A stretch of DNA of 64,000 nt from a bacterium (GTDB lineage: Bacteria; Patescibacteriota; Minisyncoccia; Phycocordibacterales; UBA2100), in NCBI GenBank assembly GCA_030648265.1, contig JAUSHX010000028.1, positions 249 to 64,248 of the forward strand. The letters run 5' to 3'. The notes under the pieces were generated by a model. It was not told the origin of the DNA. It worked only from the letters and a program-made list of their open reading frames with translations, and did no database searches. Shown here in pieces: positions 2,760 through 63,613 of this stretch (its first letter is position 1; every line of letters begins with the position of its first letter). The translations under genes were made by a program, and so were the position numbers.

Positions 2760-3911
2760 ATGTCTTTCTCCCTCGGCGGTATTTCAAAATTCTTCAAGTC
2801 CTCATTCGGAGGAAGTTCCGAGGGGAGCATTATCGGCATTGACATCGGTGCGTCGTCCGCGAAAATTGTCCAGTTGCGCGCGTCCCGCGGGACGGCGATT
2901 CTTGAAACGTACGGAGAAATCGCTCTCGGGCCCTACGGAGGCCAGGCAATCGGCAAAGCGGTGAAACTGACTCCGGAAAAAATTGCCGAGGCGCTCAGCG
3001 ATCTCATGCGCGAGGCAAATGTGACCGCCCGTACTGGCGGGCTCTCCATACCCTTTTCTGCGAGTCTCGTGTCGGTGCTTGAAATGCCGAAAGTGGACAA
3101 AGATTCTCTAAAGAGAATGGTTCCGATAGAGGCGCGCAAATATATTCCGCTTCCCGTATCGGAAGTCACTCTTGATTGGTTCGTCATACCGCATGAGGAG
3201 CAGGGGGAGAGCGCGTTTGACCAGGTGGAGGCGCCCAAACCCGTTCACGCGAGAATGCAGGAAATCCTCCTCGTCGCCATACATAATGAAATCCTCCGGG
3301 ACTATCAGAAGATATCAGAGGCAACCGGGCTCAACGTGAGTTTCTACGAGATTGAGATTTTCAGCGCGACTCGTTCCTCAATGGGGCATGGCGCGGCGCC
3401 TGTCTTGGTTGTTGATTTGGGCGCGGCGACGACGAAGATGTATATTGTGGAGCGCGGGATTGTGCGCCTTACCCACCTGCTCACATCCGGCGGACAAAAC
3501 ATGACGGATACGCTGGCGCGCTCGCTCTCATGGGAATTTGAAAAAGCGGAGCGCGTGAAGAGGGAAATCGGACTTGTCAGTTCAACCGCGTACAGCACGG
3601 ATGAGAACGACCGGATAAAGACGGCATTGTTATCAACACTCTCCCGTGTGTTTTCTGAGATAGACCGAGTATTATTAAGCTACGGGCAGCGATATAACAA
3701 AAACGTGTCGAATGTCCTCTTGACTGGAGGAGGGGCATCGCTACCCGGCCTTGCGGAACATGCCAAGGGGTCGTTGCACGCGGAAGTTCTGATTGCGGAT
3801 CCTTTTTCGCGCTCGGAGGCGCCCGCATTTCTCCGAGATGTTCTGCGGCAGATTGGTCCGGGGTTTTCCGTTGCGGTGGGTCTTGCGTTGCGGAATTTGA
3901 AGCAAGGATAA
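2760..3911 (+). CDS. pilM: type IV pilus assembly protein PilM (actin-like ATPase fold)
   Basis: IIGIDIGASSAKIVQL N-terminus, 383 aa, first gene of a pilM-N-O cluster. Confidence 0.8.
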   Translation: MSFSLGGISKFFKSSFGGSSEGSIIGIDIGASSAKIVQLRASRGTAILETYGEIALGPYGGQAIGKAVKLTPEKIAEALSDLMREANVTARTGGLSIPFSASLVSVLEMPKVDKDSLKRMVPIEARKYIPLPVSEVTLDWFVIPHEEQGESAFDQVEAPKPVHARMQEILLVAIHNEILRDYQKISEATGLNVSFYEIEIFSATRSSMGHGAAPVLVVDLGAATTKMYIVERGIVRLTHLLTSGGQNMTDTLARSLSWEFEKAERVKREIGLVSSTAYSTDENDRIKTALLSTLSRVFSEIDRVLLSYGQRYNKNVSNVLLTGGGASLPGLAEHAKGSLHAEVLIADPFSRSEAPAFLRDVLRQIGPGFSVAVGLALRNLKQG

Positions 3912-4022: not shown

Positions 4023-4733
4023 ATGGAAACGGGAATACAAAATACTTTTATACCGCACGATGTCTCGCAACCTGCGCAACGAGAGCGCGCGCGGGAGGGC
4101 GGTATCATGGATCTCGTGATGCTCGTGTCTATTGTTCTCCTGGTTGCGTCTTTGGCTCTTGCGGCAGGGGTTTTTCTGTACCAGCAATATCTGGATACGA
4201 GCAGTAAAAGCAAAATTAATCAACTCAATATTGCCAAGGCGCAGTTTGACCCGGTGCTCATTCAGGAATTTTCACGCTTAGATGACAGGATGCGGGACGC
4301 GGATTTGATTTTGGGCAACCACATCGCCCCGTCCGTATTCTTCCATATGCTGGAGGCAAATACCCTGACCACGGTATCATTTCGTTCCCTTGATTTTCAG
4401 GCGGGAAGCGATGAGGGTATGTCTATAAAAATGGGAGGAATCGCTAAGAGCGTGAATTCCATAGCGCTGCAGGCCGACTTTTTCAGCAAAGTAGGCATTA
4501 TAACGAGCCCGATTTTTTCCAACATTGACCGTCAACTGGACGGGGTGCATTTCAGTTTTTCTGCGCTCGTAAATCCATCCGCAATACGCTACGCGCAATT
4601 GGCGGCAGCGGGAAATGGAGGAAATGCCGTGCCAACGCTTTCTGTGCCCACAGCGCCTTCGGCGGCCCCAACCCCAACCCCGGCTCCCGAATCAGGATTA
4701 TTTCCTTCGCAGCCGGCGAACCAGCAACAATAA
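4023..4733 (+). CDS. pilN: PilN-like pilus assembly protein (single N-terminal TM helix; Pro/Ala-rich C-terminal tail)
   Basis: TM segment LVMLVSIVLLVASLALAAGVFLY, position after pilM; the start could be ATG 4107. Confidence 0.55.
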   Translation: METGIQNTFIPHDVSQPAQRERAREGGIMDLVMLVSIVLLVASLALAAGVFLYQQYLDTSSKSKINQLNIAKAQFDPVLIQEFSRLDDRMRDADLILGNHIAPSVFFHMLEANTLTTVSFRSLDFQAGSDEGMSIKMGGIAKSVNSIALQADFFSKVGIITSPIFSNIDRQLDGVHFSFSALVNPSAIRYAQLAAAGNGGNAVPTLSVPTAPSAAPTPTPAPESGLFPSQPANQQQ

Positions 4734-4754
4734 TAAATGAATAGTACAATCCAT

Positions 4755-4949
4755 CCCAGCCCCACTTTTGCAAAACACATTTAGAAAATTATGACAAAAT
4801 TACGCAAGCAGGCATATATATCGGCAACGCGCTCCGCCCAGCAAGGGGAGTCCTATTCGGACACGCACGTTGCATGTAACGTATCGGCAAAAGTGGAGTG
4901 GGACGTAAGAGTTTCTAAGCTCGCTTCGCTCACTAACAAACTCTAACGT
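4755..4949 (+). repeat. composite intergenic palindromic element plus conserved pre-ATG hairpin module (copy E1), filling the pilN–pilO spacer
   Basis: Arms cccagccccacttttgc / gcaaaagtggagtggg, followed by gtaagagtttctaagctcgcttcgctcactaacaaactctaacgt and then ATG. Confidence 0.8.
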
Positions 4950-5549
4950 ATGATTAAAATAATTATTTCCATAGTCAGTCTTGCGATTGCCGGCGGAGTG
5001 TTTTTCATATACACAGAATCTGCCTACAGCAACACGCAACTTCTCCAAACGAATATTGACCGGCATAACCAGGCGTTAGATAAGGCGGCGGAACTTAAGA
5101 AACTGCAGGAGACATTACTCTCGCGGTTCAATGCTTTCAACAAGGACGAAGTTGATAGGTTGCATAAGCTTCTGCCGGACCACGTGGACAATGTGCGCCT
5201 GATACTTGACCTTGACCATCTGGCAAGCACGTTCGGGATGGCGCTTCAGAATGTTGTCATAAGCAGTCCCGCAAGCGAAAGCGCGGGCACGACCGTCATA
5301 GGGTCTATTGGGGCAGGAAAGGAGAAGTATGATTCGCTGACGCTGAGATTTTCCACGCACGGCACGTATGCAAACTTTGTCGCATTCATGGAGAGTCTGG
5401 AATCAAGCTTGCGCATTGTTGACCTCGTAGCTTTGTCTCTCTCTCCGGAAGCGCCGGGTAGCGCCGCTAAGGGAACGAATACGCCGGCGGCCGCGTCTGA
5501 ATCGTCCTACAAATATGACATCACGGTCAGGACGTACTGGCTCAGATGA
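4950..5549 (+). CDS. pilO: PilO-like pilus assembly protein
   Basis: N-terminal TM, coiled-coil, 199 aa, follows pilN. Confidence 0.55.
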   Translation: MIKIIISIVSLAIAGGVFFIYTESAYSNTQLLQTNIDRHNQALDKAAELKKLQETLLSRFNAFNKDEVDRLHKLLPDHVDNVRLILDLDHLASTFGMALQNVVISSPASESAGTTVIGSIGAGKEKYDSLTLRFSTHGTYANFVAFMESLESSLRIVDLVALSLSPEAPGSAAKGTNTPAAASESSYKYDITVRTYWLR

Positions 5550-5562
5550 TTTGTATAATTGT

Positions 5563-5940
5563 ATGATGGACATCTTCTCAAAAAATAAGCTTGTGGCGGC
5601 CGCCGCCGCTCTCATCATTGCCGGCGCTGTATGGTATGGGTTTTCCGGCGGCTCGCCGCCGGCGCTGCTCGGAACCGAAAACGCAAACGGCGTGGTGAAT
5701 TCTGAAGACCAGGACCTTGTCGCGACGCTTCTCAAACTTCGGTCCGTAACGCTGACGGGGACAATATTTCAATCGCAGGTATTTCTCGGATTAAAAGATT
5801 TCAGCACAGAGATTACGCAAGAGCCGGTCGGAAGGGTGGATCCATTTGCTCCGATTCCGGTCGGTGTTTCTCAATCTGCCGCTGTTTCTGGGGCAAATAA
5901 TACAGGCGGCGCCGGCCTTTTTAACAAGCCGCAACCGTAA
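5563..5940 (+). CDS. PilP-like / hypothetical membrane-anchored protein
   Basis: TM helix LVAAAAALIIAGAVWYG, position after pilO. Confidence 0.4.
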   Translation: MMDIFSKNKLVAAAAALIIAGAVWYGFSGGSPPALLGTENANGVVNSEDQDLVATLLKLRSVTLTGTIFQSQVFLGLKDFSTEITQEPVGRVDPFAPIPVGVSQSAAVSGANNTGGAGLFNKPQP

Positions 5941-6095
5941 ATCTTTGCGGTTTTCGTCGTATGCCCAGACACTAAGTTTGTCGTCGCCTTCTTTATGAAT
6001 CAAATCACTGTGGATAATATTCTAACGACAAGTACAAATCTTGACATGTCTAGAATTGTTTCGGCACGAAATTACGGCAAACTTAGTGTACGGGT

Positions 6096-7811
6096 ATGAT
6101 AGATGTAACACAAGCGGGTAACGCCCCCCCTCTCGCCCCCATCCAAACGGCCGCGCCGAGTCGCGCGCTCGGAGACAAAAAAGTTGCCTACGATGTTTTG
6201 CGGCACATTCCCGAAGAATCGGCCGAACACTACAAGCTTGTGCCTCTCGCGGTGGAGGACGGAGTTTTGGAGGTCGGGATGCTGGACCCCGATAATCTGG
6301 ATGGAATAGACGCGCTTAACTTCATCGCCCGCAACACGGGTATGCCATTCAAGGTTTTCCAGGTGTCCGAAGAAGATTTCGGACGCGTCATGAAGATGTA
6401 TCGCGGACTGGGAGGCGAAGTGGACCGGGCAATTTCCGACCTTGAGAGCGAGCAGAGAACGCACACCTCTCAAAATCAGGCAGAGATGTCCAGTTTGGAT
6501 ATTGAGAACCCATCAATACGTGCCGGGGGGAGCAATTTGGAGTCCCTCAACATTCAGGAGGATGCGCCGACAATAAAGATAGTATCCACGATTCTGCGGT
6601 ACGCGATAGACGGGCATGCGAGCGACGTGCACATAGAACCTTTGCCCGCGGGGGTGCGCGTGCGGTACCGCGTGGATGGCGAACTGCACACGAGCGTAAT
6701 CTTGCCCGCCGCCGCCCAGCGCGCGCTCGTGGCGCGCGTTAAGGTTCTCGCATCTATCCGTTTGGACGAACAGAGAAAACCCCAAGACGGGCGCTTCTCC
6801 GCATCCATTGACGGACGGCAAATCGACTTCCGCGTATCAACTTTTCCCTCGTACTACGGCGAGAAAGTGGTGTTGCGAATCTTAGACCGCGACCAGGGAT
6901 TTATCGCTCTTGATAAAATCGGGTTCACGCCGCGCAATCTTGAGCTCATCCGTAGGGCGATTAAGAAACCGCACGGGCTCGTGCTAATTTCAGGCCCCAC
7001 CGGTTCGGGAAAATCAACCACGCTTTATTCCATGCTCGGAGAAATAGACAGAGAGCATAAGAACGTTCTCTCGCTTGAGGATCCGATAGAATATTTCGTT
7101 GATGGCGTAACACAGTCACAAGTGCGCCCGGAGATTGGTTACACATTCGCAAACGGCCTGCGCACGACTCTCCGTCAGGACCCAGACGTCATCATGGTAG
7201 GCGAGATACGCGATGCCGAAACAGCGAAGCTTGCGTTTCAGGCCGCACTCACCGGCCACCTTGTGCTCTCTACGATACACACGAATGATGCGGTGGGGAC
7301 AATTCCGCGCCTTATAGACATGGGAGTAGAGCCGTATCTCATTCCGCCGGTTCTCGTTCTCTCAATGGCGCAACGTCTTGTGCGCACGCTCTGTTCGGAC
7401 GGCGGGAAAGAATCCGAAATTACGGCGAGCGACAGGAAGAACATAGAAACGCAAATTACCACACTGCCGAAACAGTACCGGTTTAAGGTACCGAACATAG
7501 TGTATGAAGCGACGCGGACCCCGACGTGCCCTACCGGCATGCGCGGGAGAATGGCGGTGTTTGAGGCCCTGGAAATGTCCAGCGATATAGAACGCATCAT
7601 TCTGGATAATCCGGTTGAGTCGCGCCTCTGGGCATCGGCGCGCTCGCAGGGAATGCTCACCATGCGCGAGGATGCTATGATGAAGGCGTTCAACAAGCTC
7701 ATTCCTTTTTCTGAAGTCAACACGCTAAGCTCTCTCTTACTCGCGGGGGATGAAGAAGTGAAACCGGTTCTCCCGAAAGGAGAAACGGAAAAAAGCGCAG
7801 TTGCAGAGTAA
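6096..7811 (+). CDS. pilB: type IV pilus assembly ATPase PilB (GspE family)
   Basis: Walker A GPTGSGKSTT; GspE N-terminal domain; 571 aa. Confidence 0.9.
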   Translation: MIDVTQAGNAPPLAPIQTAAPSRALGDKKVAYDVLRHIPEESAEHYKLVPLAVEDGVLEVGMLDPDNLDGIDALNFIARNTGMPFKVFQVSEEDFGRVMKMYRGLGGEVDRAISDLESEQRTHTSQNQAEMSSLDIENPSIRAGGSNLESLNIQEDAPTIKIVSTILRYAIDGHASDVHIEPLPAGVRVRYRVDGELHTSVILPAAAQRALVARVKVLASIRLDEQRKPQDGRFSASIDGRQIDFRVSTFPSYYGEKVVLRILDRDQGFIALDKIGFTPRNLELIRRAIKKPHGLVLISGPTGSGKSTTLYSMLGEIDREHKNVLSLEDPIEYFVDGVTQSQVRPEIGYTFANGLRTTLRQDPDVIMVGEIRDAETAKLAFQAALTGHLVLSTIHTNDAVGTIPRLIDMGVEPYLIPPVLVLSMAQRLVRTLCSDGGKESEITASDRKNIETQITTLPKQYRFKVPNIVYEATRTPTCPTGMRGRMAVFEALEMSSDIERIILDNPVESRLWASARSQGMLTMREDAMMKAFNKLIPFSEVNTLSSLLLAGDEEVKPVLPKGETEKSAVAE

Positions 7812-7813
7812 AT

Positions 7814-8218
7814 ATGTCAGATAACAGCGAAAAACTAAGCATTCTACTGGTAGACGATGACAAGTTCCTCGTGGATATGTACAGCATGAAATTCACGGCT
7901 AAGGGCTACAATGTGAATGCATGCTTGTCGGCCGCGGATGCGCTTCAAGTGCTTCGCGACGGCTTTCTGCCGCAGGCAATAGTTTTTGATTTGGTTATGC
8001 CGGAGCACGACGGATTTTACTTTTTAAAAGCTCTCATTACCGAAAATCTAAAGCGCGGCGCATCGCTCATAGCGTTAACGAACGAGAGCAATGATGATAC
8101 AAAAGCAAAGATTACCGAACTTGGAGCGGACAGGGTCATTGTCAAGGCGACCATGATTCCGTCGGAAGTTGTGGGCACCGTGGAGGAGGAGATTGTCAAG
8201 AAGAAAAAGGAGCGCTAG
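7814..8218 (+). CDS. CheY-like response regulator receiver (PilH-like, single domain)
   Basis: ILLVDDDKFLVDMY… receiver fold; the last codons and stop lie inside the intergenic repeat (…aaggagcgctagcgac). Confidence 0.7.
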   Translation: MSDNSEKLSILLVDDDKFLVDMYSMKFTAKGYNVNACLSAADALQVLRDGFLPQAIVFDLVMPEHDGFYFLKALITENLKRGASLIALTNESNDDTKAKITELGADRVIVKATMIPSEVVGTVEEEIVKKKKER

Positions 8219-8374
8219 CGACTATTTTCGCTTGACCCAGCACCTTTGGCTGGGTGTTGAAAAGTAAGCGTGTATGGGAATGCATAGGGTATACTTATAA
8301 ACGATATGTCGTATGTTGAACAAAAGGTGCTGGGCATAAGAATTTCTAACTCGCTCCGCTCATAACAAATTCTT
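8219..8374 (+). repeat. composite intergenic palindromic element plus pre-ATG hairpin module (copy E2), pilH–pilT spacer
   Basis: Arms cccagcaccttt / aaaggtgctggg; module cataagaatttctaactcgctccgctcataacaaattctt then ATG. Confidence 0.8.
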
Positions 8375-9436
8375 ATGGACTATAGCGCCCAACTAAAAAA
8401 GTACATCAACGTGTTAGTGCACGAAGGCGCCTCGGACGCTCATTTCTCCGTCGGCGTGCACCCGACTATCCGCGTTGCGGGGAATCTCTCTCCCATGCTC
8501 AAAGAGCCGGTGTTGACAAAGGAAGACACTCTCGGTTTCTTGACTGCACTCACCACGCCACTGAATCAAAAGCGGTTTTTTTCAGAGCAGGAAATTGATT
8601 TTGCATACGAAACAGAGGACAAAGTCCGTTTTCGCGGGAATGCATTTTACCAGCGCGGCTCGGTGAGCATTGCACTCCGCCTAATCCCCCGAAAAATCAG
8701 CACTATCGCTGAATTGAACCTGCCGGAGATTCTTACGACTTTCGCCCGAAAGTCGCAAGGATTTTTTATCGTTGTCGGACCAGTTGGCCAAGGGAAAACG
8801 ACGACTCTGGCCTCTATGATAGAGCTCATCAACACCGAAAGAATGGAGCACATCGTCACCATTGAAGACCCGATAGAGTATGTTTTTGAGCCGAAGCTGT
8901 CGCTCGTGGAACAGCGCGAAGTACGCATAGACACGAAAGATTTTCCTTCCGCACTTGCCAGCGCGTTCCGCGAGGATATTGATGTGCTCATGGTTGGCGA
9001 GATGAGGGGGCCGGAGACCATGGCAGCCGCTGTCACAGCCGCCGAAACAGGGCACCTGGTTTTCTCTACGCTCCATACGAATGATGCCGCACAAACGATT
9101 GACCGCATTATTGATACATTTCCGGCTTCCCAGCAGGACCAGATACGGCTCCAGCTCGCGTCCTCCATGGCCGGTATTTTTTCGCAACGTCTAATCCCGC
9201 GCATTTCCGGGGGTCTTATTCCTGCGTTTGAACTTCTCATCAACAACAAAGCGGTATCAAACCTGATCCGCGAGAAGCGCACGCATGAATTAAATACGGT
9301 GATAGAGACCAACTCCGAAGAGGGAATGATTGATATGAACCGCTCGCTTGCGGAATTGGTGGCGCGCGGCGAAATCACGGTTGAGAGCGCATACCAGTAT
9401 TCTCTCAATCCGAATATGCTCCAAAAATTGTTATGA
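8375..9436 (+). CDS. pilT: twitching motility / pilus retraction ATPase PilT
   Basis: Walker A GPVGQGKTTT; 353 aa. Confidence 0.9.
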   Translation: MDYSAQLKKYINVLVHEGASDAHFSVGVHPTIRVAGNLSPMLKEPVLTKEDTLGFLTALTTPLNQKRFFSEQEIDFAYETEDKVRFRGNAFYQRGSVSIALRLIPRKISTIAELNLPEILTTFARKSQGFFIVVGPVGQGKTTTLASMIELINTERMEHIVTIEDPIEYVFEPKLSLVEQREVRIDTKDFPSALASAFREDIDVLMVGEMRGPETMAAAVTAAETGHLVFSTLHTNDAAQTIDRIIDTFPASQQDQIRLQLASSMAGIFSQRLIPRISGGLIPAFELLINNKAVSNLIREKRTHELNTVIETNSEEGMIDMNRSLAELVARGEITVESAYQYSLNPNMLQKLL

Positions 9437-9627
9437 AAAATAAGGAGCAGAGCGACTATATTTTTCTAACCCCCCACCACTTTAGTATCCCACAACCTTA
9501 TCTTAGATTTGATACTATGTTGAGACGGTCTCGACGAAATCACAAGATTAGAATATGAGAACGGATACTAAAGTGGTGGGGGGTGTAAGATTTTCTAAGC
9601 TCGCTCCGCTCGCTAACAAAATCTAAC
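9437..9627 (+). repeat. composite intergenic palindromic element (copy E3), pilT–pilC spacer
   Basis: Outer gagcagagcgactatatttttctaac; arms ccccccaccactttagtatcc / ggatactaaagtggtgggggg enclosing a ~70-nt loop with an inner hairpin gagacggtctc; module gtaagattttctaagctcgctccgctcgctaacaaaatctaac then ATG. Confidence 0.85.
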
Positions 9628-37467: not shown

Positions 37468-37787
37468 AACTTGGAATTGTCCTGCAATCAAATGGAGCAG
37501 AACGTGCGTGGAATACACTCCGCCTTGGAATTACTTCGCTTAAGGCGGGTCATAAAGTGGATATCTTTTTAATGAGCGAGGGATCAGAACTTGACGCTAT
37601 TCCCGACAGCGAGAATTTTGATATCTCCGCGAAGGTGAAAGAATTCAAAGGGCTGAACGGAGACATCTATGCGTGCGGCACTTGTCTTAAAGTGCGCGGC
37701 AAGCAGGAAAGCAAGGTATGCCCTGTTTCCACAATGGCAGATTTGCTGAAAATGGTTGAGGGTTCGGATAAATTACTAGTTTTTTGA
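37464..37787 (+). CDS. DsrE/DsrF-like family protein
   Basis: 107 aa, [16 protein letters not shown]…GDIYACGTC pattern of the DsrE fold. Confidence 0.5.
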
Positions 37788-37901
37788 TAAAGAAGTTGTT
37801 ATGAGCGAAGCGAATTACAAATTCTTTACCCAGCACCTTTCGCGAAAGGTGCTGGGTGTAAGATTTACTAAACTCATTATCATTCGTTAAGAAAATCTAA
37901 C
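37788..37901 (+). repeat. composite intergenic palindromic element (copy E10), dsrE-like–ilvC spacer
   Basis: gagcgaagcgaattacaaattctttac + cccagcacctttcgcgaaaggtgctggg + tgtaagatttactaaactcattatcattcgttaagaaaatctaac + ATG. Confidence 0.85.
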
Positions 37902-38960
37902 ATGGCAAAAATTAATTTCGGCGGAGTGGTAGAAGATGTGATAACGCGCGAAGAATTCTCGCTAGATAAAGCGCGGGAGGTTTTAAAGAACGAAGTCGTA
38001 GCCGTCTTGGGCTACGGCGTACAGGGTCCTGCACAGTCCTTGAACATGCGCGACAACGGCATCAACGTTATCATCGGCCAGAAATCCGGAAGCTCTTCGT
38101 ACGATAAAGCAGTTAAGGACGGGTGGGTTCCCGGCAAGACGCTTTTCTCGCTTGAGGAAGCCGCGGAGAAGGGCACCATCATCCAGTATCTCGTTTCGGA
38201 TGCGGGACAAATGATGATATGGCCGAAAATAAAACCGCATCTCACGAAGGGCAAAGCACTGTATTTTTCTCACGGTTTTGGAATGGTGTTCAACGACCAG
38301 ACCGGCATTGTGCCGCCGAAAGATATTGACGTGATACTGGTGGCGCCGAAAGGTTCCGGCCGGAGCGTGCGCATCAATTTTCTCAATGGCAGCGGAATCA
38401 ACGCGAGCTACGCTATAGAACAGGATGCGACAGGGCACGCGCGTGAACGCGCAATTGCTCTCGGCATCGCGCTCGGCGCCGGCTACCTTTTCCCCACGAC
38501 ATTCGCCAACGAAGTAAACAGCGACCTCACCGGTGAACGCGGGATTCTCATGGGCGCACTCGCAGGCGTCATGGAAGCGCAATACAACGAACTGCGCAAA
38601 CATGGCCACTCTCCCAGTGAGGCGTTTAACGAAACAGTAGAGGAGCTCACGCAGAGTCTTATCCGCCTTGTCGGCGAAAACGGCATGGATTGGATGTACG
38701 CCAACTGTTCAACGACCGCCCAGCGGGGTGCCTTGGACTGGAAGCCCCGTTTCAGAAAGGCGGTAGAACCTGTTTTCAAAGATTTGTACGAAAGCGTGAA
38801 AACGGGAAATGAGGCGCGCATCACGCTCAAGGCCAACAGCCAGCCGGATTACAAAGAGAAACTTGCGGTGGAACTCGCGGAAATCCACGATTCTGAAATG
38901 TGGCAGACAGGCGCGGCGGTTCGTTCGTTACGACCGGAGAATTGGAAGAGAAATGCCTAA
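37902..38960 (+). CDS. ilvC: ketol-acid reductoisomerase
   Basis: GYGVQGPAQSLNMRDNG Rossmann motif; 352 aa. Confidence 0.95.
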   Translation: MAKINFGGVVEDVITREEFSLDKAREVLKNEVVAVLGYGVQGPAQSLNMRDNGINVIIGQKSGSSSYDKAVKDGWVPGKTLFSLEEAAEKGTIIQYLVSDAGQMMIWPKIKPHLTKGKALYFSHGFGMVFNDQTGIVPPKDIDVILVAPKGSGRSVRINFLNGSGINASYAIEQDATGHARERAIALGIALGAGYLFPTTFANEVNSDLTGERGILMGALAGVMEAQYNELRKHGHSPSEAFNETVEELTQSLIRLVGENGMDWMYANCSTTAQRGALDWKPRFRKAVEPVFKDLYESVKTGNEARITLKANSQPDYKEKLAVELAEIHDSEMWQTGAAVRSLRPENWKRNA

Positions 38961-46924: not shown

Positions 46925-47538
46925 GATTTTTATCTCCTGTGCGAAATAGCTCGACTAACCAGATGGTCTAGCCGTGTCGGCGCTATCTCAAAACGCAGAG
47001 AGAAAGTCAATCAAAAGAAAAAAGAGCCCTTTGGGGGCTCTTTTTTCATGTTCTGCGCAATAAGCCGGATTCTGTCGGGGACAGTCATTTATCTGGGATG
47101 ATTGTAAATTCTAGCAGTCTGACTGCTAAGATTCCATTGTATCAAACCTTAGAAAGAAAAGGGAAAAAGAGAAAGCCCGGTGAACCGAGTCTTTTTTCTC
47201 TCGTTTCCTTCCGGACTTTTTTGCACCGTCATTTTTTCTTCGCAGGCGGACGCCGCCGCCGCGAAAAGATGCGGGACATCTCCCTCACCGTCTCGATTGA
47301 GGGGGGTGGAAGCGCTTTTGCATCTCGCATGGCCTCTTCCAGATCAACAGCATCAACGGCGGGTAACCGCCTTGGTTTGTTACGCTTCATCGCAATCTCC
47401 TCAAATAACTCGACCAACCGATTGATTGACCGTGTCGGCAGTATCGCAAGTTGCAGAGAGAGAGTCAATCAAATGAAAAAGTACCGCAGCAGAACCCACG
47501 AGGTTTCACCTCGTGGGTTCTCAGACATCCAGACACAC

Positions 47539-47567: not shown

Positions 47568-47571
47568 ACAT

Positions 47572-47930
47572 ACCTGCGTTAGGCAGTCGCTGGTCCGCAA
47601 GGGCTAGAGGAAAGTCCGGACACGCCCACGTTTCGTAAGATATGTGGAGCACGGTAGCGGGTAACGCCCGCCGGGGTAATCCTAGGGATGCGAACAGAGA
47701 CGGTTTTTTGCGAGAGCAAAAAACCGCCCCGTGAAATCGCGAAAGCATATTTCACTGGGGCGAGATTGAGCAGTTAAAGGCTCAAGGTGCAACGGCAAAA
47801 ATCCTACCTGCGTGCAAGGTCGTATCAAATCGTGCCATCGGTACGGTTAGAAGAACCGCTTGAGGTGATTGGCAACAATCATCCCAGATAAATGACTGTC
47901 CTCGACAGAATCCGGCTTACAAATGCAGCG
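47572..47930 (+). ncRNA. rnpB: RNase P RNA (bacterial type A)
   Basis: Universally conserved GAGGAAAGTCCGGAC (P4), 5' AGGCAGTCGC and 3' …AATGACTGTCCTCGACAGAATCCGGCTTAC, aligning with the E. coli M1 RNA termini. Confidence 0.85.
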
Positions 47931-48160
47931 AAATGAGCGGAGCGAAAAAGCTTCGCTTTTTCGTTTCCGAATGAGAAAATTTGCACGAAGTTGGGCGCAG
48001 TGCAGCCGAGCGCAGCGAGTACTGCACAGAACATGAAAAAAGAGCCCCAAAAGAGCTCTTTTTTCTTTTCTTCAATACCCCCAAATCCACACCCATCCCT
48101 TGCGGTACTTGCGCACTTCGTATGCTACACTTCCAACATATTAGTCAGATAAATATTATT

Positions 48161-52245: not shown

Positions 52246-52337
52246 GGTTCACAGTCTACAGTTTACAGTGCACAGAAAGTCGTTAGAAATTTCGGTTTGT
52301 GATTTTCTCTGTCAACTGTAAACTGTCCACTGTCTAC
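52246..52337 (+). repeat. two inverted heptanucleotide arrays (cagtcta cagttta cagtgca / tgtcaac tgtaaac tgtccac tgtctac) upstream of lepA
   Basis: Same tgtNNac family and the same inverted arrangement as at 15673–15753. Confidence 0.9.
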
Positions 52338-52357
52338 TAACGGCACCATTGACCACT

Positions 52358-54623: not shown

Positions 54624-54758
54624 TTAATAGTTTCCCGAAAGCATGGCAACAAGCCCCGGTGCGAAGAACAGCACCATACTGATGATAACGAGGACGGCCA
54701 CGACGCCCCAAAAATACTTGAGGGCTTTTTTCGTGTTGCGGTGGAAAAGGAAAGACAT
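54624..54758 (-). CDS. small hydrophobic protein (44 aa) directly downstream of a minus-strand copy of the pre-ATG hairpin module
   Basis: MSFLFHRNTKKALKYFWGVVAVLVIISMVLFFAPGLVAMLSGNY; below the ORF-track size cut-off. Confidence 0.4.
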   Translation of the reverse strand: MSFLFHRNTKKALKYFWGVVAVLVIISMVLFFAPGLVAMLSGNY

Positions 54759-54759
54759 G

Positions 54760-54911
54760 TTAGATTTTGTTAGAGAATGAAATGAGCTTAGAAAATCTTA
54801 CACCCTGTTAAATGCGACTCCGTCGCCCCGCCTACGGCGGGATTTAACAGGGTCAAGAATCTGTAATTCGCTGCGCTCATAACAATATTCTAGATGCTAA
54901 GATTATAGCGT
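54760..54911. repeat. bidirectional composite element (copy E11): central hairpin ccctgttaaatgcgactccgtcgccccgcctacggcgggatttaacaggg flanked by outward-facing pre-ATG modules on both strands
   Basis: Minus-strand revcomp of 54759–54800 is tttaacagggtgtaagattttctaagctcatttcattctctaacaaaatctaac+ATG; plus-strand caagaatctgtaattcgctgcgctcataacaatattctag precedes ftsB-like gene. Confidence 0.8.
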
Positions 54912-55286
54912 ATGAGTACATTTGAGCAACGTCGGGACCCCCTGCACCTGTTCGGCAAACGTCTGTTTCTCGCCTTACTCGTCCTGCTTATTGCCGTGGC
55001 GATATCGGGGGTGTGGAAAGCCTATCGCAAAGAGCAGGAGTCCCTCTCACTCCGCCGGGAGGCGGAAGTTCAGCTTGCAGACCTCGCAAAGAGGAAAGCC
55101 CAACTGGAAACCGATATCTCAAAATTGAACACTCCACGCGGAATGGAAGACGCTCTGCGCGAGCAGTATCTTCTTGCAAGAAGTGGAGAGAATCTCATAA
55201 TAATTGTAGATTCTCCGACTCCAACGCCCATAGAAGCGACCTCATCAATGATGCAATGGTTCCAAAAGACGTTTTGGAGCTGGTAG
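54912..55286 (+). CDS. FtsB/DivIC-like septum formation initiator
   Basis: N-terminal TM, coiled-coil, C-terminal LLARSGENLIIIV motif. Confidence 0.6.
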   Translation: MSTFEQRRDPLHLFGKRLFLALLVLLIAVAISGVWKAYRKEQESLSLRREAEVQLADLAKRKAQLETDISKLNTPRGMEDALREQYLLARSGENLIIIVDSPTPTPIEATSSMMQWFQKTFWSW

Positions 55287-62653: not shown

Positions 62654-62710
62654 ACGTTCTCCCAATTTCTAATATTCCATATCCTACGCCATGGCGTAGG
62701 ATATGGAATA

Positions 62711-63613
62711 TTATTTTTGTAGCCAATTGATTACTCGGCCAGAAATTCTATTCGTTTCCTTCGGATTTAACCATTTAATTGCTTTATTACGTCGCCAGTA
62801 AGTAATTTGCCTCTTTGCATAACGCATGCTCTCGCGCACCAACATTTCGTCAAATTCTTTGCGCGAGATTTTCTTCTGCAAAAGGAGGGCTAGAAATTTG
62901 TAATCAAGACCTAGAGATTCCATTTTTTTGTACGACAGACCTTTTTTGTGCAGAGACCTTGCCTCCGCTATCATACCTAGTCTAATTCGCGCGAATAAGC
63001 GAATAGTGATTCTCTCTTCCAATTTTTTCATAGGTAGCGCGATACCTATCCACAGCACATCATACCAAGGACCGTCCTTGGTATTGGATACATGGATATA
63101 GCCCAAAGCGGAGGCAATTTCAAGAGCACGGACAAGACGCCGTTTGTTGTGCCTGTCTATTTCTTTGGCTCGCCGGGGGTCGCGTTTTTTCAGGAGCGCG
63201 AATAATTTCTCCGCAGTCATTTTCTCAAGCTGTTCCCGAAGCTTGATGTTCATGGGTACATTTGGCAGAGCAATCCGGCCAAGCAAGGCGTCAATATAGA
63301 ATCCCGTGCCTCCGGCAACTATGGGTAATTTACCCCTACACGCAACTCGGACGGCCGTCCGAGTTGCGTGTGTTACGAAATCATGAGCAGTGAATATCCG
63401 TTTTGGAGAGACAACATCTAACAAGTGATGAGGGACGCCCCTCATTTCTTGTTTTGTTATTTTTCCCGTTCCTAAGTCCAGTCCTTTGTATACTTGCCGC
63501 GAATCTGCGGAAATGATTTCGCCCCCGAATTTGCGAGCGAGCTCAACAGCCAAGGCGCTTTTGCCGGATGCCGTAGGGCCGACAATAACAAGCACCTTTT
63601 GCCTCTTTTGCAT
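62711..63613 (-). CDS. miaA: tRNA dimethylallyltransferase
   Basis: P-loop GPTASGKSALAV and ISADSRQVYKGLDLGTGK. Confidence 0.9.
   Translation of the reverse strand: MQKRQKVLVIVGPTASGKSALAVELARKFGGEIISADSRQVYKGLDLGTGKITKQEMRGVPHHLLDVVSPKRIFTAHDFVTHATRTAVRVACRGKLPIVAGGTGFYIDALLGRIALPNVPMNIKLREQLEKMTAEKLFALLKKRDPRRAKEIDRHNKRRLVRALEIASALGYIHVSNTKDGPWYDVLWIGIALPMKKLEERITIRLFARIRLGMIAEARSLHKKGLSYKKMESLGLDYKFLALLLQKKISRKEFDEMLVRESMRYAKRQITYWRRNKAIKWLNPKETNRISGRVINWLQK

Follow-up and report, generated by a model that had tools for sequence, protein, structure and literature searches.

What occupies the spacers between stop and start codons in a bacterium that makes little use of Shine-Dalgarno (SD) sequences, and what does it do there? 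The question is raised by a 64,000-nt stretch of DNA, here called the window, from a member of the Patescibacteriota (Minisyncoccia; Phycocordibacterales; UBA2100; GenBank assembly GCA_030648265.1, contig JAUSHX010000028.1, positions 249 to 64,248 of the forward strand). The window has a G+C content of 48.7% and carries a type IV pilus gene cluster (pilM, pilO, pilB, a response regulator gene, pilT, pilC, pilins and a prepilin peptidase gene) along with ligA, ilvC, lepA, six tRNA genes and an RNase P RNA gene. An earlier note, made from the letters of the window alone, had described six copies of a composite palindromic repeat in its intergenic spacers, and all six were confirmed in the sequence. 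Here we describe this element. The part that faces the start codon, referred to below as the core or module, is a conserved, covarying hairpin shared across phyla, and the element that carries it is gained, lost and exchanged between related genomes.

The core is an irregular hairpin of 42-46 nt. A basal stem of 3-4 bp is followed by a variable stem of 8 bp, which is bracketed by two U-A/A·A/A-U motifs 10 nt apart, and the apex consists of a covarying inner stem of 1-3 bp, a UC/UC tandem mismatch, 2 bp and a UNC triloop. The apex accepts inserted hairpins (L010 6620, L065 4757; L-numbers denote loci fetched from other genomes and metagenomes, L121-L200 being pilT orthologues). The structure.(((.((((((((..(((..((...))..)))..)))))))).))) was scored on an ungapped alignment of 51 long-type copies from many genomes, in which 89.0% of cells pair (68.7% after shuffling) and 12/16 pairs change on both sides. 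The covariation score of 0.544 compares with 0.203 for shuffled alignments and at most 0.111 for slid controls, and was reached in 0/500 shuffles. Among 96 copies found by the covariance model in genomes of the Candidate Phyla Radiation (CPR), 90.6% of cells pair versus 69.8%, with changes on both sides in 14/16 pairs. Because the 3' arm lies outside the search pattern, its complementarity to the free 5' positions provides an unbiased test, and a mean of 4.18 out of 5 are paired, compared with 2.49 ± 0.09 with shuffled partners. The two loop purine-pyrimidine dinucleotides also pair, both being Watson-Crick in 112 of 123 copies (GC/GC 53, AC/GT 31, AT/AT 21, GT/AC 7). The proposal that the stem is selected for pairing, which the earlier note had drawn from a few copies in the window, is thus borne out by the 3' arm and by both alignments, and the compensatory changes found across many genomes are stronger evidence than the note itself contained. 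The predicted fold pairs positions -1 to -12, in line with its suggestion that the last ~12 nt before the start are occluded, and in most CPR copies the predicted basal stem pairs the A and U of the AUG as well.

Copies were sought with the pattern AAGANNNNSTAAN{0,2}YTCRYTNCRYTCN{1,2}TAA, which has 7 matches in the window against 0.00 expected (100 shuffles). The covariance model, run with filters off at every position of the window, gives 9 significant modules, six of them adjacent to a start codon (9583+, 4903+, 16317+, 54758-, 37856+, 8334+) and three at the far ends of composites (37787-, 54851+, 16240-). Run on 185,579 species genomes, the same pattern found at least 113 loci, and more than 170 copies were found in total, including those in Kaiserbacteria and Paceibacteria-type CPR genomes. 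The module also occurs in metagenome-assembled genomes (MAGs) of Planctomycetota, Zixibacteria, Rickettsiales and delta-proteobacteria, and so in at least five phylum-level groups; among the matches listed there are several copies per genome, and the spread across phyla is patchy. The comparison with Rfam proposed earlier returned no relevant family: a gathering-threshold scan of the window with Rfam 15 finds only the RNase P RNA and the tRNAs, and scans at permissive E-values (16200-16400, 4700-11000, and L088 6700-7360) gave no relevant match, ruling out a known RNA family. No matching description was found in the literature on CPR repeats and miniature inverted-repeat transposable elements (MITEs) or on leaderless and SD use in Patescibacteria, nor for the loop strings.

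The six composites and three related hairpins of the window are as follows.

4734-4949, plus strand: composite 1, between a pilN-like gene and pilO, without a left module; core module at 4903-4948, then GT, then the ATG at 4950 (66.6 bits).
~4753-4771 and ~4887-4904: arms of the long central hairpin of composite 1, with an insert of roughly 115 nt between them.
8195-8377, plus strand: composite 2, between pilH and pilT, with a short-type module at 8334-8377 overlapping the ATG at 8375 (46.7 bits).
~8195-8236: left hairpin of composite 2, whose 5' arm is formed by the lysine codons of pilH and whose tip GAGCGCTAGCGA encodes ER*.
~8235-8335: central hairpin of composite 2, with TATACT within the loop.
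9437-9628, plus strand: composite 3, between pilT and pilC, with a module at 9583-9628 that ends on the A of the ATG (70.1 bits).
9437-9470: degenerate left hairpin of composite 3, beginning directly after the TGA stop.
9469-9490 and 9563-9584: perfect 22-nt arms of the central hairpin of composite 3.
16240-16362, plus strand: composite 4, between a 192-aa open reading frame (ORF) and ligA, with an inverted module at 16240-16280 (minus strand, 25.0 bits) that contains the TAA stop.
~16278-16318: central hairpin of composite 4, followed by a plus-strand module at 16317-16362 flush with the ATG (66.5 bits).
37787-37902, plus strand: composite 5, between a DsrE-like gene and ilvC, with an inverted short-type module at 37787-37830 (minus strand, 38.3 bits) directly after the TGA stop.
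37819-37866: central hairpin of composite 5, with a plus-strand module at 37856-37902 flush with the ATG (59.0 bits).
54758-54895, no single strand: composite 6, between divergent genes, with a long-type minus-strand module at 54758-54803 flush with the ATG of a 44-aa ORF (66.4 bits).
~54802-54853: central hairpin of composite 6, followed by a plus-strand short-type module at 54851-54895 that ends ~17 nt before the ATG of an ftsB-like gene at 54912 (30.7 bits).
5961-6097, plus strand: long hairpin without a module, whose 3' arm reaches and overlaps the pilB ATG at 6096.
10838-10955, plus strand: member of the central-hairpin family without modules, starting inside the pilC stop codon.
12612-12660, plus strand: member of the central-hairpin family without a module, after which the prepilin peptidase gene begins in a promoter layout of the leaderless type (GATAAT-N8-ATG).

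The element is very probably a family of mosaic, imperfectly palindromic intergenic repeats with separable blocks, and we are just as confident of what the blocks are: an inverted distal module whose end, T[TAG]A or A[TAA]AGA, usually is the upstream stop codon; a central hairpin; and a proximal core abutting the start. The earlier description of a three-part composite stands, except that its "outer left segment" is itself a hairpin, namely the module in inverted orientation, mostly as a shorter subtype (GTAATTCGCTNCGCTCATAAC) or in degenerate form. The same note had the element supply the last codons of pilH (KKER*). The ER* does come from the tip of the element, whereas the lysine codons are ancestral, since L037 has them without the element. 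For composites 4 and 5 the minimum-energy fold consists of three tandem hairpins on either strand (z = -4.9 to -7.8), that of composite 4 having a predicted energy of -49.3 kcal/mol (z = -7.8). The central hairpin (ACCC..CAC.TTT / AAA.GTG..GGGT) is a separate GC-rich repeat family, with half-sites at 13501, 14349 and 15020 and standalone members at 10838-10955 and 12612-12660, and its larger versions contain a -10-like box in the loop; the long hairpin at 5961-6097 differs from this family. Because the blocks occur alone and in different combinations, the composite is a BIME-like mosaic, and the likeness to ERIC and BIME elements that had been drawn earlier is apt.

The insert of composite 1 (4770-4890, about 115-120 nt) is conserved in other genomes at other loci (L036 3350-3470, and L101), with paired segments CAACGCGC...GCGCGTTG, and has no Rfam match. 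A coding role was considered for the insert, there taken as 150 nt, and rejected: the window and L036 each keep a 50-codon ORF open, yet 17 of 17 differences, read off the sequences, are non-synonymous, so the insert looks like a structured non-coding module.

In the CPR, the module is placed with respect to codons. An ORF-opening ATG lies within -2 to +12 nt of 45 of the 51 CPR long-type modules; 32 are exactly flush, the last base of the model being the A of the ATG, and 9 have the ATG at +2, past the basal stem. The claim that the module ends exactly at the ATG holds for four copies of the window, a fifth (8334) overlapping the ATG, and does not hold for composite 1, with its 2-nt spacer, or for the right end of composite 6, with its gap of ~17 nt. 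The tie to start codons is likewise a feature of the CPR copies, as only 5/72 copies outside the CPR are start-codon-adjacent. The long-type module is always oriented toward the downstream start. Roughly every second CPR copy is inverted and lies at a stop codon: in inverted modules without an outer ATG, the upstream stop falls within the first 8 nt in 16/19 assignable cases, and 13 of these 16 stops lie in the terminal motif T[TAG]AAG or A[TAA]AGAA. Genes preceded by the module include the highly expressed rplF, rpsK, rplQ, rpmJ, rplX and groEL, and the same essential genes are preceded by it in several genomes.

The spacers of the window lack an SD, as had been stated, and so do nearly all other genes there: SD-like motifs were found in ~7/62 upstream regions by one scan and in 4/54 by another, and in several genes a TATAAT-type box stands 6-8 nt ahead of the ATG (e.g. 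61509, 61937, 12677). In Gottesmanbacteria and three other genomes, an SD of the GGAGGTGA type follows directly after the module. SD frequency in the genomes with this order is roughly 15-40%, compared with 0-7% for the window, L017, L037 and L110, by a crude ORF-based count that is too noisy to rely on. In L064 (520-640, minus strand), the predicted rplM ORF begins within the loop of the central hairpin and continues across a variant module, so that the repeat may supply N-terminal codons of rplM, or the true start may be non-canonical.

Outside the CPR, a corresponding placement is found at stable RNA genes. Four of them are immediately preceded by the pyrimidine-loop form, namely tRNA-Ile in a 16S-23S spacer (L042), tRNA-Tyr (L088), tRNA-Met (L096) and transfer-messenger RNA (tmRNA; L047), and seven are immediately followed by its reverse complement: tRNA-Gly (L088), tRNA-Met (L096), tRNA-Leu (L059), tRNA-Ser (L102), a tRNA in L112, tmRNA (L073) and RNase P RNA (L040). 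One orientation rule holds in 11/11 of these cases, to within 0-5 nt. In L042, a group II intron domain (3322-3403) lies between the 16S rRNA gene and the module-bearing tRNA-Ile/tRNA-Ala pair.

Gain and loss are seen on comparison with the nearest syntenic relatives among the fetched loci, the Kaiserbacteria MAGs L110, L017 and L037, whose coding DNA is ~65-83% identical in nucleotides. Between pilN and pilO, the window has a 215-nt element where L017 has TAA-CCC-ATG and L110 has TAA-T-ATG; between pilH and pilT, it has a 156-nt composite where L037 has 21 nt with TACAAT-N7-ATG. Copies are also shared between unrelated places. Composite 1 shares 88% identity over 203 nt with L036, whose flanking genes differ, and the operon of L064 contains two near-identical copies of ~150 nt, before rpmJ and rpsK. 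The element of composite 3 is also found upstream of pilC in L005, L016, L062 and L108. Comparison of the window by blastn with the genome of L052, L064, L104 and L108 gave matches to element sequence only; at the pilC site of L108 the adjoining coding DNA gives no match while the element does.

The pilT gene illustrates what the element replaces. Among the 80 metagenome orthologues, the module is upstream of pilT in only 8 and downstream in 1. Of 40 loci listed, ~31 are module-less, and in at least 25 of these, judged by eye, TACAAT, TATAAT or a near variant stands 6-8 nt ahead of the start, with SD motifs absent, a layout that suggests widespread leaderless mRNAs in this CPR clade. In the module-bearing loci with a clear -10 box (L121, L123, L124, L143, L188), the box lies 65-90 nt upstream, in the loop of the central hairpin, and the 3' arm and module occupy the stretch from the box to the ATG. 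The -10 box being displaced by the module, pilT expression must cope with a new structured, SD-less leader.

How it may do so is suggested by the placement. We propose, with a probability of roughly 40%, that the core hairpin defines RNA ends, probably through processing to leaderless mRNA; transcription through the element, cleavage and the enzyme are steps that we infer. The composite would be transcribed as an intercistronic spacer or 5' untranslated region, where the core hairpin would act on the RNA as an end-defining "punctuation" signal. An endonuclease recognizing the hairpin, possibly of the RNase III type or another structure-specific RNase, would cut at or near its gene-proximal base. 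The downstream mRNA would thereby be freed with its 5' end at or a few nt from the AUG, to be translated as leaderless by the SD-less lineage, and the upstream mRNA would be left ending in protective hairpins. The gene-proximal base falls at the first position that the functional RNA needs (the AUG in SD-less lineages, the SD in SD-using ones, the +1 of tRNA and tmRNA), and the inverted copy falls at stop codons and at the 3' ends of mature RNAs. A cut at the base of the hairpin would account jointly for the positions at AUG, SD and RNA ends, for those at stop codons, and for a -10 box moved away from its start codon while the gene is kept. Like an RNase III-type hairpin, the core lies between cistrons and forms an irregular helix some two turns long, in which ~21 pairs and mismatches are stacked below a triloop. 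The comparative data appear to favour such a processing or end-defining role over that of a simple repressor hairpin.

Several observations weigh against this reading. G-U pairs make up less than 1% of paired cells in both the 51-copy and the 96-copy sets, which is unusual for a constraint on RNA only and in keeping with a structure formed by DNA or with one constrained on the two strands alike. With RNA as well as DNA parameters, the reverse complement is the better-folding strand, by ~1.5-3 kcal/mol. The mismatches are pyrimidine-pyrimidine on the module strand, and the complement reads G·A, GA/GA and a GNA triloop. The tip of the complement strand is GCGNAGC, commonly GCGAAGC, a very stable DNA mini-hairpin (PMC13037366). 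The element is also dispensable, as most pilT orthologues lack the module and the upstream region of pilB occurs in four states, with the hairpin only (window), an SD-like GGAGG only (L017), hairpins plus the module (L110), or a full composite (L037). In Rickettsiales, Rhizobiaceae and delta-proteobacterial MAGs, the module occurs in clusters among other GC hairpins, away from gene starts. Flush placement may in part reflect insertion into the 1-20-nt spacers of compact genomes. In 2.9 million viral contigs there were 7 pattern matches, of which only 2 were model-positive; a phage origin or use was rejected on this count, and phages therefore apparently do not use the module as a general expression signal. 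Our estimate for the end-defining role is kept low, and a selfish explanation at the DNA level kept alive, by the few G-U pairs, the better-folding complement, the tip with its DNA mini-hairpin sequence, the patchy distribution and the fact that the element can be dispensed with. A more far-reaching form of the proposal, in which the core would be a previously undescribed cross-phylum RNA punctuation motif, cut at its gene-proximal base by a conserved endonuclease or self-cleaving, that travels on a mobile repeat, sets the precise 5' and 3' ends of mature RNAs and converts polycistronic or leadered transcripts of SD-less CPR bacteria into leaderless mRNAs, is in our view doubtful.

Of the rival explanations, the one that survives best regards the element as selfish, MITE- or REPIN-like DNA, with the core serving as a single-stranded or cruciform substrate of a transposase or recombinase (e.g. 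HUH/Y1, RAYT-like) and having no RNA function; flush positions would arise because only insertions in the few non-coding bases of compact genomes survive. It accommodates the empty and filled orthologous sites, the 88% identical 200-nt copy at a non-orthologous locus, the two near-identical ~150-nt copies in the L064 operon, and nucleotide matches between genomes that are stronger in the element than in neighbouring coding DNA. The inverted modules flanking a spacer resemble terminal inverted repeats or REPINs, and the patchy phylum distribution, the near absence of G-U pairs and the GCGNAGC-type tip (PMC13037366) are also as expected of DNA. We consider it rather unlikely. No transposase was found in the window or beside the copies inspected, and no consistent target-site duplication was seen, the single ATGA...ATGA case aside. 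The polarity is strict, the long type facing the start and the 11 stable-RNA cases sharing one orientation. Modules adjoin the ends of tRNA, tmRNA and RNase P RNA exactly in Planctomycetota and Zixibacteria MAGs, which are not reduced-genome CPR, making compaction an unlikely cause there, and the element is kept before the same essential genes in several genomes. The end-defining and selfish readings are not exclusive, as the element could propagate at the DNA level and still be tolerated, its ends being transparent to expression.

The second alternative, which we consider distinctly unlikely, is an uncleaved element acting on translation in cis, either by presenting the AUG in a leaderless-like manner or by occluding the start as an operator or thermosensor; in a variant, the fold of the whole composite brings the upstream stop beside the downstream start, so that termination-reinitiation coupling is kept. 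The pairing of the A and U of the AUG by the basal stem in most CPR copies, the layout of the composite, which has a stop codon at its 5' base and a start codon at its 3' base, the tightly coupled ancestral arrangement of pilN and pilO (TAA-N1-3-ATG), and the lack of SD use in the lineage of the window all agree with this. It fails, however, for copies flush with the ends of tRNA, tmRNA and RNase P RNA and for copies before divergent or promoter-proximal genes that have no upstream cistron, and the genes concerned include those of highly expressed ribosomal proteins. In addition, a stable hairpin at -1 is expected to clash with the ribosomal mRNA channel. That the module is instead a transcription signal, with a promoter firing at the first base after it and the inverted copy terminating the upstream gene, is highly improbable: functional RNA (AUG, SD or tRNA +1) does begin right after the module and inverted copies do lie at gene 3' ends, but the conserved bases do not match -10 and -35 positions for a start at the ATG, scans place no sigma-70 promoter or intrinsic terminator inside the module, the sole promoter-like match touching one (4933-4960) ends past the ATG, ordinary TATAAT-type -10 boxes are found elsewhere in these genomes, the elements contain neither a GC hairpin followed by a T-tract nor any terminator-like site, and the covarying stem points to a single-stranded fold rather than a duplex DNA site.

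In general kind, the element belongs with the REP/BIME, ERIC and Correia intergenic repeats, and it lacks every family-defining feature that could be checked (no GTAG, no TA duplication, and a reversed attC order). With REP, BIME and REPIN sequences it shares mosaic palindromic units in alternating orientation that are extragenic, multi-copy and transcribed, with compensatory changes in the stem. As in REPINs, there is an inverted doublet with a spacer, composites 2-6 consisting of two inverted modules around a central hairpin. The 5' GTAG of REP and REPIN sequences is absent, the conserved flanks here being (G)TAAGA and TCTAA(C), and no Y1_Tnp/RAYT domain was found in the 30 window ORFs scanned. 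Each REP sequence is specific to a species; the present core is common to CPR, Planctomycetota, Zixibacteria and Proteobacteria. MITE-like features are the terminal inverted repeats, with outer ends TTAGA...TCTAA, and the presence/absence polymorphism at orthologous sites. ATGA stands on both sides of composite 1 (judged against the empty site of L017), which could be chance, with nothing equivalent at pilH/pilT, and the TAA/TAG at both ends of the element is part of its conserved motif. No autonomous partner element was seen in the loci inspected, no systematic search having been made, and there is no obvious transposase among the ORFs near a module cluster in L078.

Correia (NEMIS) elements of Neisseria are non-autonomous sequences of ~100-150 bp, bounded by inverted repeats, that lie near gene starts and are co-transcribed; they are reported to form hairpins cut by RNase III and to contain promoter elements. 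The present element has no sequence relation to them, and no TA duplication was seen at its ends (the Correia repeat and its IHF site were not compared by any tool), and each of its ends is an irregular cross-phylum hairpin that coincides with start or stop codons. ERIC (IRU) elements likewise are imperfect palindromes (~127 bp in ERIC) in transcribed intergenic regions of operons, but have no sequence similarity to it, differ in host range and are not flush with codons. Flush ends are known from the MIRUs of mycobacteria, intercistronic repeats whose ends coincide with the flanking stop and start codons, preserving downstream expression; unlike the present hairpins, MIRUs are tandem direct repeats that encode short ORFs and are not palindromic. 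Integron attC sites (e.g. the Vibrio VCRs) are imperfect palindromes of 60-140 nt that span stop to start, conserve structure over sequence and function as folded single strands. Their RYYYAAC...GTTRRRY order is reversed here (GTTAGA outermost on the left, TCTAAC outermost on the right), no integrase was found among the window ORFs scanned, and the genes flanking the repeat are core genes (ribosomal protein genes, ligA, ilvC). TIGR-Tas arrays were set aside, since the hairpins here are dispersed single units at gene borders and not tandem arrays. With the RNase III sites of phage T7 and the tRNA punctuation of mitochondria, the element would share the use of structured intercistronic elements to set mRNA ends; processing, which is demonstrated for both of those systems and yields leaderless mRNAs in mitochondria, is proposed for the present element, and the punctuator in the present case is a repeat hairpin and not a tRNA. 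What distinguishes the element is the cross-phylum structure of its core and a placement that is exact to the codon or to the RNA end.

Other features of the window are recorded here in their own right. At 13441-15658, three tandem units of ~671-677 nt each follow the 5' arm of the central hairpin alone (ACCCCTTACCACTTTTyyyATG); a domain scan covering the first and third ORFs, with the second (14346-15020) outside it, found a GIY-YIG nuclease domain and then a prepilin N-methylation motif in the first and only the prepilin motif in the third. Another possible nuclease is encoded by the ORF at 1253-1894, which has an NYN domain (PIN-like ribonuclease fold) and 83% nucleotide identity in the Kaiserbacteria relative L110, and may be regarded, conjecturally, as a candidate processing nuclease. 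The RNase P RNA call at 47571-47935 scores only 113.6 bits, and a 45-nt stretch ~770 nt upstream (47061-47105) is 98% reverse-complementary to its 3' end (47875-47919) and could represent either a partial duplicate in inverted orientation or an antisense partner; further repeats nearby (47013-47062/48020-48069, 46586/47165, 46972/47430) comprise terminator-like inverted arms and direct repeats. Tandem heptamers (AGTTTAC/CTGTCAA) in both orientations are present at 15673-15753, at the start of the ORF 15666-16244, and at 52246-52338, just upstream of lepA, forming iteron-like or regulatory repeats at two distant sites. Between the convergent NAD(P)H-hydrate dehydratase and miaA genes, a perfect 22+22-nt palindrome without spacer (62670-62713) is probably a terminator-like hairpin serving both directions, with no relation to the repeat family.

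The CPR accounts for a large share of bacterial diversity, and how its SD-less internal cistrons are translated becomes an experimentally concrete question where, in some relatives, a hairpin at the start codon replaces a leaderless promoter layout. Whatever its mechanism, the core is a candidate for a new family of RNA (or single-stranded DNA), being strongly covarying, absent from Rfam and flush with the ends of stable RNAs, and the module could aid the annotation of gene starts and stops in CPR genomes. If the punctuation reading is true, it would represent a bacterial counterpart of mitochondrial tRNA punctuation, carried on a mobile repeat.

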